64,000 nucleotides of DNA from Gemmatimonadota bacterium. Its GTDB lineage: Bacteria; Gemmatimonadota; Gemmatimonadetes; Palauibacterales; Palauibacteraceae. Below, piece by piece: positions 9,059 through 15,881 of the stretch (position 1 is its first letter; every line of letters starts with the position of its first letter). The stretch is from contig OY762926.1 of the NCBI GenBank assembly GCA_963666735.1, positions 2,720,001-2,784,000 on the forward strand. The letters are read 5' to 3'. The notes beneath the pieces were generated by a model. The model saw nothing but the letters and a program-made list of their open reading frames with translations. It did no database searches and had not been told where the DNA came from. The position numbers and the translations under genes are program-made.

Positions 9059-9239
9059 GTTGCTACTCCCCGTAGAGGTTTCTCCGCGAACTCTCCCTCA
9101 CTGTACACCCGCTGTACACCCGCCGTGGCGAAACCGTGCCGAGCGTGGCCGATTTTCCTTGCCGGGCGTCCCGATTCACGCTTAGCTTCGCTTCGTGCAG
9201 AATCCTACACCCCAAGCTGCGGTGTCACGGTCGGGCTCA

Positions 9240-10442
9240 ATGAAAAGCCGCGTCCAGCCGCCTCCGATCCTTGACAAGTGTCGTGAACTAGCGACCGTGA
9301 ACGGTCTCCGCGAGGCCGGCCTCTATCCGTACTTCATGCCCATAGAGGCCTCGCACGACACCTGGGTCGTCATCGACGGCGCGCGCAAGATCATGGTGGG
9401 CTCCAACAACTACATGGGGCTCACGCACGATCCGCGCGTCCTCGAGGCGGCCCGTGACGCCCTCAACAAGTTCGGAAGCGGCAACACGGGCAGCCGGTTC
9501 CTCAACGGCAACCTCAATCTGCATGAGCAACTCGAGGCCGAACTCGCCGACTTCACCTGCATGGAGGCCGCGCTCGTATTCTCCACCGGCTACCAGACGA
9601 ATCTGGGTACGCTGGGCGCGTTGATCGGCCGCGCGGACACGGTCTACATCGACAAGCTGGACCATGCCAGCCTCCAGGACGGTGCACGCATGGGGCTCGG
9701 CCGCACCCGGCGCTTCAATCACAACGACTTCGCGACCCTGCGGCGCATGCTCGAGGCCGAGACGCCCTCGCGCGGCAAGCTCATCGCGGTGGACGGCGTG
9801 TACAGCATGGAAGGCGACATCGCCGATCTGCCCACCCTGGTCGAACTGAGGCGGGAGTACGGCGCGGCCATCCTGGTGGATGACGCGCACGCCGTGGGGG
9901 TGCTGGGCGAGACCGGGGCCGGGACCGCCGAGCACTGGGGACTCACCGGCCAGGTGGACCTGATCCTCGGCACCTTCTCCAAGTCCTTCGCCTCGATCGG
10001 TGGCTTCGTGGCGGGTCGCGCAGACGTCATCGACTACCTCCAGCACAACGCCCGCGCCCTCATGTTCAGCGCGAGCATGCCTCCCGCCTCCGCCGCCACC
10101 GTGCTGAAGGCGCTGGAGATCATCCGCGATGAGCCGGAGCGCCGGGAGCAGCTCTGGAAGAACACCTACAGGATGATGGAGGGCTTCAAGTCGATCGGGT
10201 TCGATATCGGGCCGACCGAGACCCCGATCATCCCCATCCTCATCGGACCCATGGAGAAGACCTTCGTGTTCTGGCGCGCGCTGTTCGAAGCCGGCGTCTT
10301 CACGAACCCGGTGGTTCCGCCCGCGGTTCCGGAAGGGAGTTGTCGCCTGCGGACGAGCTACATGGCGACGCACTCGGATGACGACCTCGATTTCGTGCTC
10401 GACCAGGTAGAGCGCGTGGGGAAGAAGCTCGGCGTCGTCTGA
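9240..10442 (+). CDS. spt: Alpha-oxoamine synthase, probable serine palmitoyltransferase
   Basis: YPYF, GSNNYMGL, GSRFLNG, HAS, DDAH, GTFSKS (PLP lysine); operon context. Confidence 0.75.
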   Translation: MKSRVQPPPILDKCRELATVNGLREAGLYPYFMPIEASHDTWVVIDGARKIMVGSNNYMGLTHDPRVLEAARDALNKFGSGNTGSRFLNGNLNLHEQLEAELADFTCMEAALVFSTGYQTNLGTLGALIGRADTVYIDKLDHASLQDGARMGLGRTRRFNHNDFATLRRMLEAETPSRGKLIAVDGVYSMEGDIADLPTLVELRREYGAAILVDDAHAVGVLGETGAGTAEHWGLTGQVDLILGTFSKSFASIGGFVAGRADVIDYLQHNARALMFSASMPPASAATVLKALEIIRDEPERREQLWKNTYRMMEGFKSIGFDIGPTETPIIPILIGPMEKTFVFWRALFEAGVFTNPVVPPAVPEGSCRLRTSYMATHSDDDLDFVLDQVERVGKKLGVV

Positions 10443-10458: not shown

Positions 10459-11589
10459 ATGACGAGCCTCGCCTCCTCCGTGCGCGTCGTCCCCGTCGAA
10501 AGCCGCGCCGACCTCAAGCGCTTCATCGACCTGCCGTGGTCGATCTATCGGGGCGATCCCGACTGGGTGCCCCCGCTGAAGAGAGATGTACGGGCGGCCT
10601 TCGATCCCGCGAAACACCCGTTCCACCTGCACTCGGAGGTCCAGCCCTACCTCGCAGTGCGCGACGGCCGGGCAGTGGGCCGAATCTGCGCGATCCGGAA
10701 CCGGAATCATGAACGGATACACGACGAAGCCGTAGGGTTCTTCGGCTGGTTCGAGTGCATCGACGACCCGGAAGTGGCCGTGGCGCTGCTCGACGTGGTT
10801 CGGGTTTGGCTCCGCGCGCGCGGCCTCACCGCGATGCGCGGCCCCACGAGCTTCTCGACCAACGAGACCTGTGGCCTGCTCATCGACGGAGATCCCGGGC
10901 CGCCGGTCGTCCTGATGGCCTACAACCCGCCGTACTATCCGGGGCTGATGGAGGCTGCCGGACTGCGGAAGGTCAAGGATCTCTTCGCCTGGCTCATGAA
11001 GAAGGGCGATTGGCCGCCGCACCTGTTCCGCGCCGAGAAGGTCGTGACGCGCAGGTACGGCATCCGGATCAAGACGCTGGACATGTCGCGATTCGACGAA
11101 GAACTCGGCCGCGTCCAGCGCCTGTACAACGCGGCCTGGGAGAAGAACTGGGGTTTCGTCCCCATGACCGAGGCCGAGATGGATCACATGGCGGCGGAAC
11201 TCAAGCCCATACTCGACCCCGAACTCGCGCTCTTCGCGGAGACGCCGGAGGGCGAAACCGCCGGCTTCGCGCTCGCCCTCCCGGACTTCAACCAGGTGCT
11301 GCGCCGGATGAACGGCAGGCTCTTCCCCTTCGGAATCCTGAAGGCGCTCATCTACCGGCGCAGAATCACGTGCATGCGCGTCATCATCCTGGGGCTCGCC
11401 GAGGAATGGCGCGGCAAGGCCGTCGATGTCCTCCTCTACCTGTGGCTGTTCAGGAAGGGAATCGCCGCCGGAATGACGTCCGCCGAGCAGTCGTGGATCC
11501 TCGAGGACAACCAGAAGATGAACCAGGCCATCGAGCGGCTCGGCGGCAGGGTCTACCGCACCTACCGGCTGTACGAAGCGGCCCTGTAG
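10459..11589 (+). CDS. Tandem-GNAT N-acyltransferase, bacterial ceramide synthase (bCerS)-like
   Basis: DPxWVPPL, GFFGWFE, YNPPYY, NWGFVPMT, LPDFN, SWILEDN motifs; 16 bp after spt. Confidence 0.75.
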   Translation: MTSLASSVRVVPVESRADLKRFIDLPWSIYRGDPDWVPPLKRDVRAAFDPAKHPFHLHSEVQPYLAVRDGRAVGRICAIRNRNHERIHDEAVGFFGWFECIDDPEVAVALLDVVRVWLRARGLTAMRGPTSFSTNETCGLLIDGDPGPPVVLMAYNPPYYPGLMEAAGLRKVKDLFAWLMKKGDWPPHLFRAEKVVTRRYGIRIKTLDMSRFDEELGRVQRLYNAAWEKNWGFVPMTEAEMDHMAAELKPILDPELALFAETPEGETAGFALALPDFNQVLRRMNGRLFPFGILKALIYRRRITCMRVIILGLAEEWRGKAVDVLLYLWLFRKGIAAGMTSAEQSWILEDNQKMNQAIERLGGRVYRTYRLYEAAL

Positions 11590-12542
11590 TGGGATCGGTC
11601 TTCCTGACGGGGGGGAGCGGGTTCCTCGGCAGCCATCTCGCCGCCGCACTCGTCGCCGCCGGACATCAGGTCACCGCGAGCGTGCGGCGAACGAGCGACA
11701 CGCGTCGTCTCGATCGCCTCGAACTGACGAAGGTCGAACTCGATCTCGGGCTGAGGGACGACGCGGCAGCGGCAGCGGCACTCGCGGATTGCGCCGCCAT
11801 CGTGCACTGCGGGGCGCTCACGCGGGCGCGCAACGCGTCGGAGTTCATGGCCGTGAACGCGGTCGGCACCCTGAGGCTCGCCAGGGCGGCGGCGGATGCG
11901 GGAGTCCCGCGGTTCGTGTTCATCAGCAGCCTCGCCGCCCGGGGCCCGGACGGAGCGGACGGACCCGTGAGCCCGTACGGCCGGTCGAAAGCCGAGGCCG
12001 AGGCCGCGCTCGCGTCCATCCGCGGGCCGATGAAGGTGACCGTGCTCCGGCCGGGGGGCGTGTACGGCCCGCGCGACTCCGACCTGCTGCCGCTCTTTCG
12101 GCTGGCGGCGCGGGGGTGGACCGCGATTCCGCGCAGCCGCGCGCCGCTGCAGCCGGTATATGTCGCCGATGTCGTCTCGGCCGTCCTGGCCGCCCTCGAG
12201 GCGGCGCCGTCTCCGTCTCCGCTTCCCATCGCCGCGGCGGAACGGCATTCCTGGCGCGCGCTGGCGGGAGCGCTGATGGCTGCCGTGAACCGCACCGGTC
12301 GCGTCCTGCGGCTACCGTCCGCCCTCTTTCTCACCGCGGGGGCGCTGTCGGAACTCGCGGGCCGCCTGACGGGAACCGCCCCCGCCTTCGACCGGAGACG
12401 GGCGCGGGATCTGTCCGCGTACGCCTGGACCTGCGACATCGAGGCGAGCCGAAGACATCTCGACTCGTGGCATCCGCGGGTCGGCATCGAAGAGGGGCTC
12501 GCGCGCACCGCCGAGTCGTATCGCCGCATGGGCTGGCTGTGA
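11589..12542 (+). CDS. Extended SDR NAD(P)-dependent reductase/epimerase, candidate ceramide (3-keto) reductase
   Basis: TGGSGFLG, SS, YGRSK; GTG start overlaps the upstream TAG. Confidence 0.7.
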   Translation: MGSVFLTGGSGFLGSHLAAALVAAGHQVTASVRRTSDTRRLDRLELTKVELDLGLRDDAAAAAALADCAAIVHCGALTRARNASEFMAVNAVGTLRLARAAADAGVPRFVFISSLAARGPDGADGPVSPYGRSKAEAEAALASIRGPMKVTVLRPGGVYGPRDSDLLPLFRLAARGWTAIPRSRAPLQPVYVADVVSAVLAALEAAPSPSPLPIAAAERHSWRALAGALMAAVNRTGRVLRLPSALFLTAGALSELAGRLTGTAPAFDRRRARDLSAYAWTCDIEASRRHLDSWHPRVGIEEGLARTAESYRRMGWL

Positions 12543-13426
12543 GCGACGGCGGCAGCGGACGACTCCTGCCCGTCGATCGCCTTGCCATCGGCTACTTCGG
12601 TGGCACGGGCCTCGTTTCCCTCGCGTTCGGCGGCCTGCCCGGGGCGGGAATCGCAGCGGCCCACGCGATCGCCATCTTCGGGATCACGCGACTTGCGGCC
12701 TGGCGCCCCCGCGCAGGCCTCGCAGTCATCGCGCGGGCGGCGTACGCCGTGTGCCTCACACCCCTGCTGTATGCGGAGCTCGCCGTCATCAACCGCTTCT
12801 TCACGCAACGGTACTTCGACGCCACGGTGCAGGCGTGGGACGCCGCCGTGTTCGGCGGACAGCCCAGCATCGGCCTCAGCGCGCTGTTCCCCTGGCTCTC
12901 CTTCTCCGAGGTGTTGCACCTGGGCTACTTCGCCTACTACGCCATCATCCCCGCCGCCATCCTGGGCGTGTTCGCGACACGCGGCGCCGAGGCCCTGCAG
13001 CGCACCGCCCTCGCCGTGGCCGCCGCCTTCTTCGTCTCCTATCTCATCTTCATGTTCTTCCCGGTCGCCGGCCCCCGGTACGAGTTTGCCCAGATCGGCG
13101 GCGGGATCGGCGAGGGCACGCTGTTCGGGATCGTGCACGGGATCCTGGAGGCCGGCTCGTCGAAGGGCACGGCCTTCCCCAGCTCCCACATCGCCGCCTC
13201 CCTGGCGGCGGTCGTGAGCGCCGGACGCGAGGATCGGCGCTGGTTCTGGCTCCTCATCATCCCGGAACTCGCGTTGACCGCCGGGACGGTGTACGGTCGC
13301 TTCCATTACGCGACCGACGCCCTCGCGGGCATCCTGCTCGGACTGCTGGTCTGCGCCGTACTGCATGCGTCCGGATCCGGGGCCGGGGGCGCCCGGGAAG
13401 CCGAGGGCGGGCAACCCGCGGCCTGA
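12539..13426 (+). CDS. PAP2-superfamily membrane protein, Aur1/IPC-synthase-like
   Basis: Multiple TM helices; YFAYY, PVAGPRY, AFPSSH, HYATD; GTGA overlap with the SDR gene. Confidence 0.75.
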   Translation: MSDGGSGRLLPVDRLAIGYFGGTGLVSLAFGGLPGAGIAAAHAIAIFGITRLAAWRPRAGLAVIARAAYAVCLTPLLYAELAVINRFFTQRYFDATVQAWDAAVFGGQPSIGLSALFPWLSFSEVLHLGYFAYYAIIPAAILGVFATRGAEALQRTALAVAAAFFVSYLIFMFFPVAGPRYEFAQIGGGIGEGTLFGIVHGILEAGSSKGTAFPSSHIAASLAAVVSAGREDRRWFWLLIIPELALTAGTVYGRFHYATDALAGILLGLLVCAVLHASGSGAGGAREAEGGQPAA

Positions 13427-13475
13427 GCCGCGCATCAAAGCGGTGGATTCGGAAGGTGACCTTCAGAGGGATGAC

Positions 13476-14033
13476 GTGGACGAACGCGACCTGATCGCCT
13501 GCGCCAAAGCGGGAGAGCGATCCGCGATGGGGGAGTTGTACGAACTCCACGCGCGGCGCGTCTACACCGTGATCCGCCGCCTCGTGGGCGACGATCACCT
13601 CGCAGAGGATCTGTCCCAGGAAGCCTGGATCCGTGCGTTCGAGAAGCTCCACCTTTTTCGCGGGGACGCGGCCTTCGGCACGTGGCTCTACCGGTTGGCG
13701 ACGAACGTGGCGCTCAACCGGCTTCGCAGGTCGTCGAAGCGACGGCCCGTGGAGTCCGCCGCCGAGCTTCCCCGCGTGACGCGGGCGCACGACGACGTGA
13801 TCGTGACCCGGCGGGTCCTGACCAAGGCGCTGGACCAGCTGCCGCCGGGGTACCGGAAGGTCCTCGTGCTGCACGACGTGGAAGGCTGGACGCACAACGA
13901 CATCGCCGAGTTTCTGGGTTGTTCGCCCGGCACGTCGAAGTCGCAGTTGCACAAGGCGCGGGCGCGCATGCGGAAGCTCATCGCTCCGGAAGATTCCGGG
14001 AACGGCGGTGCGCGGGGCGAAGCGCGCCTGTGA
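13476..14033 (+). CDS. ECF RNA polymerase sigma factor
   Basis: AEDLSQEAWIRAF, FGTWLYRLATN, region 4 IAEFLGCSPGTSKSQLHKAR; start approximate. Confidence 0.9.
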   Translation: MDERDLIACAKAGERSAMGELYELHARRVYTVIRRLVGDDHLAEDLSQEAWIRAFEKLHLFRGDAAFGTWLYRLATNVALNRLRRSSKRRPVESAAELPRVTRAHDDVIVTRRVLTKALDQLPPGYRKVLVLHDVEGWTHNDIAEFLGCSPGTSKSQLHKARARMRKLIAPEDSGNGGARGEARL

Positions 14034-14067
14034 GAGGGATGGAAGAGGGATAGAAGGGATAGAAGAA

Positions 14068-14763
14068 ATGGCGAACCACATGGATGCCGAGCGAATCTCG
14101 GCACTGCTCGACGAGCCGTGGGCCGACCAGGACTGCCGGGCCCACCTCGATGCGTGCGGGGATTGCCACGCGGAGTTCGAGAGATTGAGCCGGCTGCGCA
14201 TGGCGTTGTCCGCACTCCCGGATGAGAAGGCGCCGAGCGGGCAGTGGGCCGGGATCGAGGCCGCGCTCGATGCGGGTGAGACGCGGGCCGGCACCGGCTG
14301 GATCGGCCGAGGCGTCGCCGGCCGTCTCTTCGTCCCGGGACCGCTCCAGGCCGCCGCCGCCCTCGTGTTGTTTGCCGGCGGCGTGATCGCCGGCCTGCAG
14401 TTCACCGGCGGCGGCGTCGCGAACTCGCCGGATCCGGCCTCGGATCCTCCAGCCGTCGTTTCCACCGATGATGGTCGCACCCTCGTGGACGGTCTCAGCC
14501 GGATGGAATCGCTGCGGTCGCCGCTCAGACAGGTGGGAGAGGGGGGGACGGGTCCCGCGTCGGAAGGCGGGTTGGGGGAGAGAGATCCCCTGGCGGCGGC
14601 ACAGAGATTGGCGAGGCTGGAGGGATCGATCCGGGCACTGCGGGACCGCCTCGAGACGAATCCCGACGATCTGCTCGCCAGCGCCTACTTGCTGGAATTC
14701 GTGGAGACGCGCGATCGACTCGCGGAGGAACTCGGCCGCGCAAGCGGGACGCGGACCTGGTGA
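14068..14763 (+). CDS. Zinc-finger (HxxxCxxC) membrane anti-sigma factor
   Basis: HLDACGDC, one TM helix, follows the ECF sigma. Confidence 0.8.
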   Translation: MANHMDAERISALLDEPWADQDCRAHLDACGDCHAEFERLSRLRMALSALPDEKAPSGQWAGIEAALDAGETRAGTGWIGRGVAGRLFVPGPLQAAAALVLFAGGVIAGLQFTGGGVANSPDPASDPPAVVSTDDGRTLVDGLSRMESLRSPLRQVGEGGTGPASEGGLGERDPLAAAQRLARLEGSIRALRDRLETNPDDLLASAYLLEFVETRDRLAEELGRASGTRTW

Positions 14764-15881
14764 CCATGCCTCTCTCGCGGTCCCCGCGCCCGCTCGCCGC
14801 GGCTCTCGCCGCGGGCGTCCTGTCGCTCACGCCCCTTTCCGGTGCGGCACAGGAGACCCCGGCGGCCGCCGCTCCCGGCTGGATCGGGGTGCGGGTCGAC
14901 GAGCGCTACAACTGCGGCTGGGAGACACCGGAAGATTGGAAGAACTGCACGCTCGTCGTCCAGGTTCGTGAGATTCAGGAAGACGGGCCGGCGGCGCGTG
15001 CGGGGCTCCTCGTCGGCGACCGACTGGCGGCGATGAACGGCGTGGGCATCTCCCTCGCCAACCTTTCCGAGCTGCTTGCATCGATCCGCCCGAGCGTCCC
15101 GGTACGATTGCAGGTCACACGAGACGGGGCTGACCGCACGCTGGAAGTCATTCCCGACACCCGGCCCCCGGATGCGGACGACGTACCGATGGAGGGCCGT
15201 CGGACGATCGTGACCACGACCGGGAACCGGCGGCGCGGCACGTTCGTCTTGTGGCTGACGGCCTCCGCCGGGCGCGACTCCACCGAGCGCGGCCGCGCCG
15301 GCGTCGCCCTCGCCTTCCGCGATACGGATGACACCGGCGTCGCCGTCGAGCCCTCCGCCGTGCGGGTCGTGGACGGCCGACTCAACGTGCTGCCCGTTCG
15401 CGACCGACCGGTCTCGGAGTTGCCGGCGGTCCGTGTGGAAATACTCCGTGATCTGCAGCGCGAGTCGGAATCGGCCTACCGGGACTTCACGCTGGCGCTC
15501 CAGCACGTCGGGGCTGTGCGGGCGCGCCTCTCGGCGACGGAGTTCCGGCGCCGCGTGGCGCGTGCCGCTCAGGTGGCGCGGCCGGAGCCCGGTCTCGCCG
15601 CCCGCCTCCACCGTACGTTCGCGGGGGCCGAGTTCGAGCCCGTGCGCAACTTTTCCGACCGTGTCGGTATGGATGGTCTCCTCGTGCTCAGGGTCGCGCG
15701 GGGGACGGTCACCGCCCGGCTCGGGATCAGGCCGGGAGATCTCCTCGTGAGAGCCGCCGACCGTCCGACACGGGACCTGGAGGAACTCGTCACCGCGCTC
15801 GATTCGGAACCCGGATCGGGCCCGAGCGTGGTGTGGGTCCGGGGAGGTCGCGAGATGAGCGCAGTCTGGCCCCGACGCTGA
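14760..15881 (+). CDS. Secreted PDZ-domain protein (two PDZ-like domains)
   Basis: Signal peptide; GWIGV...GPAARAGLLVGD and ARLGIRPGDLLV. Confidence 0.75.
   Translation: MTMPLSRSPRPLAAALAAGVLSLTPLSGAAQETPAAAAPGWIGVRVDERYNCGWETPEDWKNCTLVVQVREIQEDGPAARAGLLVGDRLAAMNGVGISLANLSELLASIRPSVPVRLQVTRDGADRTLEVIPDTRPPDADDVPMEGRRTIVTTTGNRRRGTFVLWLTASAGRDSTERGRAGVALAFRDTDDTGVAVEPSAVRVVDGRLNVLPVRDRPVSELPAVRVEILRDLQRESESAYRDFTLALQHVGAVRARLSATEFRRRVARAAQVARPEPGLAARLHRTFAGAEFEPVRNFSDRVGMDGLLVLRVARGTVTARLGIRPGDLLVRAADRPTRDLEELVTALDSEPGSGPSVVWVRGGREMSAVWPRR

Follow-up and report, generated by a model that had tools for sequence, protein, structure and literature searches.

A four-gene operon of a Gemmatimonadota genome was found to end in a gene that encodes a real, conserved and probably synthetic Aur1-like enzyme, and we give a probability of roughly 0.7 to its product being a periplasm-facing transferase of phospho-head groups to ceramide. 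The operon was analyzed within a window of 64,000 nucleotides, the term denoting the whole stretch of DNA studied here (Table 1). Motifs, fold, loss of phosphatase residues, conservation of the operon and co-occurrence with ceramide genes support the transferase reading, in which the activity itself is predicted from sequence and a structural model. In the proposed pathway, based on what is known of the families, Spt would form 3-ketosphinganine, bCerS would N-acylate it, CerR would carry out the reduction and the PAP2 protein would perform the last step in the inner membrane. If the mechanism follows that of Aur1, H256, activated by D260, would attack the phosphodiester of a glycerophospholipid at the periplasmic face with release of diacylglycerol, and H217 would activate the 1-OH of ceramide, the acceptor of the phospho-head group.

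Table 1. Positions of the predicted operon genes, of the motifs of the fourth gene product (window coordinates) and of the related Bacteroidota gene pairs (locus coordinates)
Feature	Position	Strand	Basis or remark
Gene 1, serine palmitoyltransferase (spt)-like alpha-oxoamine synthase	9195..10442	+	NCBIfam NF047600, PDB match
Gene 2, bCerS-like GNAT N-acyltransferase	10459..11589	+	Weak GNAT match, PF13480, E 0.0013
Gene 3, CerR-like extended SDR reductase	11589..12542	+	PF01370, E 2.6e-30; CerR name from position
Gene 4, Aur1-like PAP2_3 membrane enzyme	12539..13426	+	GTG start, 295 aa; PF14378, fold, profile
PVAGP, residues 175-179	13061..13075	+	Aligned to Aur1 PAAPP; site of the C1 motif Kx6RP in phosphatases
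AFPSSH, residues 212-217	13172..13189	+	H217 = Aur1 H255, S215 = Aur1 S253 (alignment)
T250-VYGRF-H256-YAT-D260	13286..13318	+	Thr in place of the C3 Arg of PgpB/LpxE; H256 = Aur1 H294, D260 = Aur1 D298
cerR-like + PAP2 pair, three Bacteroidota	L261:4799-6762, L262:2690-4750, L263:1512-2818		

The AFPSSH, HYxxD and PVAGP motifs, which the sequence-only reading had named, were all present in the translation of the fourth gene, HYATD occupying residues 256-260. The product matched Pfam PAP2_3 with 46.1 bits against a cut-off of 27 (E 6.5e-12), and PAP2 (PF01569) stayed below its cut-off. Residues S215, H217, H256, D260 and P179 were invariant across 120 relatives, the most divergent of which were about 25% identical, which places the motifs beyond chance. 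The AlphaFold model, built from 87 homologs (mean pLDDT 90.6), was nearly all helix and compatible with eight membrane segments, in agreement with the polytopic membrane protein proposed earlier; not all of these segments could be resolved by a simple hydropathy scan on its own. The short loops L2, L4 and L6 were rich in Lys/Arg, which would leave the catalytic loops outside. The loop charges thus suggest a periplasmic active site, and such a location fits the CerR of Caulobacter, which is periplasmic according to the accessible part of PMC11087976.

Translational coupling to the ceramide genes, also proposed earlier, was borne out by the GTG start of the PAP2 gene, which overlaps the TGA stop of the reductase gene (GTGA). 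The GTG start of the reductase gene in turn shares 1 base with the bCerS stop, and 16 bases separate spt from bCerS. No promoter-like site was found at the operon, and the terminator-like matches were uninformative. The three upstream genes belong to the same families as the Spt-bCerS-CerR pathway of Caulobacter, which differs in that an anionic head group is added there via a ceramide kinase (accessible part of PMC10331486). The Spt assignment appears well supported, though below the NCBIfam cut-off: NF047600 (SPT) was the best NCBIfam model with 519 bits against a cut-off of 640, the BioF/Kbl models reached 369-392 bits, and the best PDB match was an SPT with 435 bits, followed by AONS/KBL with 293. 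The putative bCerS and CerR were named by family and gene order. The bCerS-like protein had no NCBIfam match, and its relatives on plasmids were annotated as GNAT or "dATP pyrophosphohydrolase", a label also given to Caulobacter bCerS. Among the matches listed, the closest named homologs were those of Ca. Palauibacter (Gemmatimonadota). The subthreshold SPT score and the naming of bCerS and CerR by family and order would fit an operon making a non-ceramide aminolipid, e.g., one with a sulfonolipid-like backbone modified by the fourth gene product, but SPT was clearly the top match, with 435 bits against 236 for cysteate acyltransferase, and the 1-OH acceptor is missing from a sulfonate backbone, so we regard such a product as very improbable.

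Structural and profile comparisons pointed to Aur1 of Saccharomyces cerevisiae, the catalytic subunit of IPC synthase (PDB 9ivc, 9vj3/9vj4). In Foldseek at E<=0.001, the model matched only Aur1 (9ivc, E 1.1e-4; 9vj4, E 4.0e-4), which was also the top VIA match (Z 18.0, 263 residues aligned, rmsd 4.1), ahead of LpxE (Z 14.7, 162 aligned), PgpB (Z 13.4, 172) and SMSr (Z 11.7, 204); a Z of 18 is a moderate margin for an all-helix protein. A profile of 120 sequences aligned to Aur1 over positions 9-279 (E 3.2e-7) and to phosphatases over the C-terminal core only, at about 210-287, the total bits of LpxE being nearly equal to those of Aur1 (31.9 vs. 33.1). Searches of the PDB with the single sequence and with a first profile gave nothing useful; Aur1 was reached only by the broader profile, and identity to it was only 15-17%. 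All clusters obtained from the ESM Atlas were unnamed PAP2_3 clusters, and the cluster look-ups gave no informative names. SMSr (sphingomyelin synthase-related protein, PDB 8ijq) shares the H-H-D transfer to ceramide but is a poorer structural match than Aur1 and was absent from the sequence-profile matches.

The spacing of the triad, 39/4, is the same in H217/H256/D260 and in Aur1 H255/H294/D298, each of the latter being essential by mutagenesis according to the accessible parts of PMC13133130 and PMC12122681. The two proteins also differ: no Kei1-like partner is encoded in the operon, Aur1 H293 is Phe here, and the loop before the first catalytic His, tied to the choice of head group in the Aur1 work (accessible part of PMC12122681), is shorter. 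As in Aur1, Thr replaces the C3 Arg and P-x-x-[GP]-P replaces C1.

The canonical motifs of PAP2 lipid phosphate phosphatases are C1, Kx6RP, and C3, Rx5Hx3D, whose C1 and C3-Arg residues hold the phosphomonoester. In the two alignments of the PAP2 family described here, C1 was found in 1/87 and 0/120 rows and C3 in 0/87 and 1/120; the alignment placed Thr at the position of the C3 Arg in this family and in Aur1, and Arg in LpxE and PgpB. PgpB, LpxE and SepP share the core fold and the C2 and C3 His/Asp residues but match only the C-terminal core and keep the C3 Arg that the family lacks. Hence, the earlier description of the protein as Aur1-like is supported, and a phosphatase-like nature is not, by both the near full-length fold and profile match to Aur1 and the missing phosphatase residues. 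Were the protein nevertheless a lipid phosphomonoesterase kept with the ceramide genes (acting on ceramide-1-P or sphingoid-1-P, PGP/PIP, or undecaprenyl-PP), the common fold and H-H-D triad, the weak matches to the SepP, LpxE and PgpB models in 26, 7 and 2 of the 87 members, the presence of one DAGK_cat kinase in the genome and the relatives in genomes without bCerS would be accommodated. No PgpA was found in the host genome, which leaves a PGP/PIP phosphatase unaccounted for and counts against the transferase. We consider such a phosphatase unlikely, given that C1 and the C3 Arg are missing in essentially all members, that the full-length match is to Aur1 only and that a second PAP2 protein of the genome (C1:3507918-3508232) retains RP, SGH and R-x5-H-x3-D.

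The sequence-only reading had named a lack of conserved linkage to spt as one outcome that would refute it and had asked for a survey of spt-bCerS-PAP2 synteny, in which the linkage proved conserved. All three of spt, bCerS and cerR lay upstream in 62 of the 68 genome loci with at least 3.6 kb of upstream sequence (from the best 80 of 577), the exceptions being five Poribacteria and one Acidobacteriota, and spt or bCerS was found in 21 of the 24 metagenome loci with enough flank (from the best 80 of 581), both sets being biased towards close relatives. Within Gemmatimonadota the PAP2 gene was present in 114 of 201 genomes. Every one of the 114 carriers had bCerS, none of the 68 bCerS-negative genomes had the PAP2 gene, and 19 of the 133 genomes with bCerS were without it; these counts cover kin genomes and so are not independent. 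Two of the 19 (G095 and G186) carry a GT4 glycosyltransferase and an LPG_synthase_TM gene after spt-bCerS (L100:6503-8687, L102:6584-8850), a pair predicted to make a glycosphingolipid. On plasmid 1 of Rubrobacter radiotolerans (L260:5704-11296), spt-cerS-cerR, 48-50% identical to the operon, are followed by an LTA-synthase-family gene; in this cultured Gram-positive, the gene may encode a transferase of a different fold that moves phosphoglycerol or phosphoethanolamine to ceramide. Since other head-group enzymes appear to fill the same slot in these three cases, the slot would tend to hold a head-group enzyme. Contigs of a sponge metatranscriptome covered 28 of 30 bins, mostly at <95% identity, and one spanned the cerR-PAP2 junction; two RNA runs held small shares (0.11, 0.08). 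These contigs do not show transcription and were left out of the evidence.

The cerR-PAP2 pair recurs in Acidobacteriota and Bacteroidota. Among 241 Acidobacteriota genomes, bCerS was found in 22 of the 33 strong carriers (E<=1e-50) and in 42 of 94 at E<=1e-15; Fisher tests on these counts take no account of kinship and were given no weight. Relatives in Poribacteria were about 40% identical with the same GSSKGTAFPSSH/GRFHY signature; bCerS was found in 0/6 of these carrier genomes, with one query and in assemblies that may be incomplete, and MIPS in 0/4. The wider family therefore does not need ceramide genes. The Poribacteria members without bCerS or MIPS would be explained by a phospholipase C-like or reverse-direction enzyme, which would use water or diacylglycerol as the acceptor in the same phosphodiester chemistry and turn over phospholipids or phosphosphingolipids, including those of the host in sponge symbionts. 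Against such a role, which we judge quite unlikely, stand the translational coupling of the gene with synthesis genes in both free-living and host-associated lineages and the filling of the slot by synthetic head-group enzymes elsewhere. In two Poribacteria loci (L075, L078) the PAP2 homolog lay upstream of genes for a DegT aminotransferase, an LMF1 protein and an inositol monophosphatase-family protein, with no ceramide genes.

With the transferase preferred, its relation to known bacterial enzymes was considered. The sequence-only reading had held that bacterial head-group routes use other enzyme families and that a one-step route was possibly undescribed. Neither statement survived: similarity to Aur1 had led to BT_1522 of Bacteroides thetaiotaomicron, a gene whose deletion mutant lacks inositol phosphoceramide and regains it upon complementation, so that, from the accessible parts of PMC9246714 and PMC8791184, an Aur1-like IPC synthase and with it the Aur1-like route in bacteria had already been described genetically. 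What stood of the head-group transferase proposal were the Aur1 likeness and the linkage to spt-bCerS. BT_1522 is a PI-dihydroceramide synthase (NCBIfam NF052609), bacterial, Aur1-like and of the same reaction type. Ceramide phosphoinositol is also made by Myxococcus xanthus. The PAP2 protein is, as judged by family models, not an ortholog of BT_1522 but a member of a separate Aur1-like family: NF052609 gave it 13.9 bits against a cut-off of 480 (the SepP phosphatase model gave 14.3) and was above its cut-off in none of the 201 phylum genomes, the control B. thetaiotaomicron passing. Another model tried for BT_1522, NF052560, turned out to represent an unrelated family. Gene order differs too, BT_1522 adjoining MIPS/PIPS and the PAP2 family adjoining ceramide genes, with no MIPS/PIPS found in the 160 PAP2 loci (best 80 of 577 from genomes and best 80 of 581 from metagenomes). 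The chemistry is thus not new; the link of Bacteroidota members of this PAP2 family to a cerR-like gene is.

As to the head-group donor, PI and PG come out about equal, each a tentative choice, and a relaxed specificity or another donor (cardiolipin, PIP) seems unlikely; these gradings divide among them the probability given to the transferase. Psd was present in 182 of the 201 phylum genomes and in 0/12 of the host's own family, 11 of which carry the PAP2 gene, so that PE is an unlikely donor here and the membrane of this family is probably PE-free, as far as gene content tells. The host genome encodes three CDP-alcohol phosphotransferases, two of them PgsA/Cls-like and one PIP-synthase-like (PIPS-like), the last directly upstream of MIPS (L088:7311-9331; about 965300-967330 of contig C1) and 1.77 Mb from the operon. 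Both PIPS-like and MIPS genes were found in about 185-190 of the 201 phylum genomes (MIPS in 190), a spread that predicts inositol lipids across Gemmatimonadota. Among the PAP2 carriers 112/114 had MIPS. The other two (G027, G161) reflect assembly gaps, and an operon without PI genes was rejected for them: a contig ends within the PIPS-like gene and tmk is missing as well, and MIPS is split over two contigs. In G041 the PIPS-MIPS genes are cleanly lost and spt-bCerS kept without cerR or the PAP2 gene; G095 likewise is without both PIPS-MIPS and the PAP2 gene. Such joint losses point to PI but comprise two genomes only. Against PI counts that MIPS is near-universal in the phylum and absent from the PAP2 loci. 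Five Acidobacteriota genomes, one of them a single 4.5 Mb contig, have the four genes in identical order and gave no match for MIPS; in a midpoint-rooted FastTree of 164 rows, from which near-identical Palauibacter rows and short rows were left out, these five belonged to a distant clade in which the loop differs. The recurring neighbours at the PAP2 loci gave no donor clue. For Gaopeijia maritima, the accessible part of PMC11651109 gives PE, PG, DPG and an aminolipid as major lipids, PI not being among those reported there. The MIPS and Psd tallies over the 201 genomes include the unpublished G155 and the Acidobacteriota tallies the unpublished G228; the conclusions are independent of both.

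The pairing of the PAP2 gene with cerR in Bacteroidota was seen in three matches from 72,556 records of a plasmid collection, which look like pieces of chromosomes. In all three records (Bacteroides finegoldii, Prevotella sp. oral taxon 299 and Phocaeicola massiliensis), a cerR-like gene directly precedes or runs into the homolog; the product of this cerR-like gene is 26-31% identical to the CerR-like protein of the operon, and the PAP2 homologs scored 185-205 bits with the family profile at 27-32% identity. They differ from the Palauibacter enzyme in the signatures ERPTAAFPSSH and TVYIQAHY. Neither spt nor bCerS was found within the fetched 4-6 kb flanks of two of the records. The B. finegoldii protein (WP_237923849.1), annotated as "phosphatase PAP2 family protein", had no NCBIfam match and hence is not BT_1522. 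It had 5504 relatives at E<=1e-20; the best 120 of them had a median of 195 bits, FPSSH and HYxxD present and no C3 Arg, and the named ones among these were called only PAP2 phosphatase. In the accessible part of their work, Sartorio et al. did not find an EPC synthase by BLAST and reported residual IPC in the BT1522 mutant, and the accessible part of a 2023 review (PMC10191378) describes PE-DHC as a product of every Bacteroides tested without giving a synthase for it. For these reasons, the Bacteroidota member is a plausible candidate, resting on three records, for the PE-dihydroceramide synthase. A broader view, to which we give somewhat less than even odds, is that the cerR-coupled Aur1-like family constitutes the widespread default bacterial phosphosphingolipid synthase, distinct from BT_1522 and with a donor varying by clade, its Bacteroidota member being the PE-dihydroceramide (EPC) synthase of gut Bacteroides, possibly also the redundant weak IPC synthase inferred by Sartorio et al., and the Palauibacter enzyme using PG or PI.

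The weight of the finding lies mainly in the testable prediction for Bacteroides and in the donor question. Bacteroides sphingolipids reach and affect the host, and for PE-dihydroceramide, whose synthase was unassigned in the accessible papers of 2022-2023, a single-gene candidate is now offered in a genetically tractable genus. Phosphosphingolipids are predicted in much of Gemmatimonadota (114 of the 201 genomes sampled). No report of sphingolipids in this phylum was found in the literature searched, which excluded most subscription papers; the main text of PMC11334938, in its accessible part, does not mention Gemmatimonadota, and the accessible parts of PMC11271474 and PMC8779627 hold no passages on lipids.

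Several observations concern the surroundings of these genes. A lone bCerS, 73% identical to that of the operon, was present in four genomes of another family, with spt, cerR and the PAP2 gene absent nearby in both loci fetched (L092:5338-6465, L093:7512-8639); horizontal transfer among co-occurring symbionts is its likely origin. In G075 (L111:11-4546) a fused AMP-binding/acyl-CoA dehydrogenase/carrier/alpha-oxoamine synthase gene lies near bCerS, an MBOAT gene and the PAP2 gene. Unannotated genes of 258-287 aa without a Pfam match were noticed between cerR or the PAP2 gene and an ECF sigma factor gene (L105:4737-5510, L107:8167-8952, L153:3817-4677). In the window, the operon is followed on the plus strand (13470-15881) by genes for an ECF sigma factor, which probably starts at GTG 13476, for a likely anti-sigma factor (14068-14763) and for a PDZ protein (14760-15881). 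Such a sigma-factor cluster lay no more than 2.5 kb away in 65 of the 150 loci examined, and it is possible that the sigma/anti-sigma/PDZ genes form an envelope-stress unit tied to sphingolipid synthesis.
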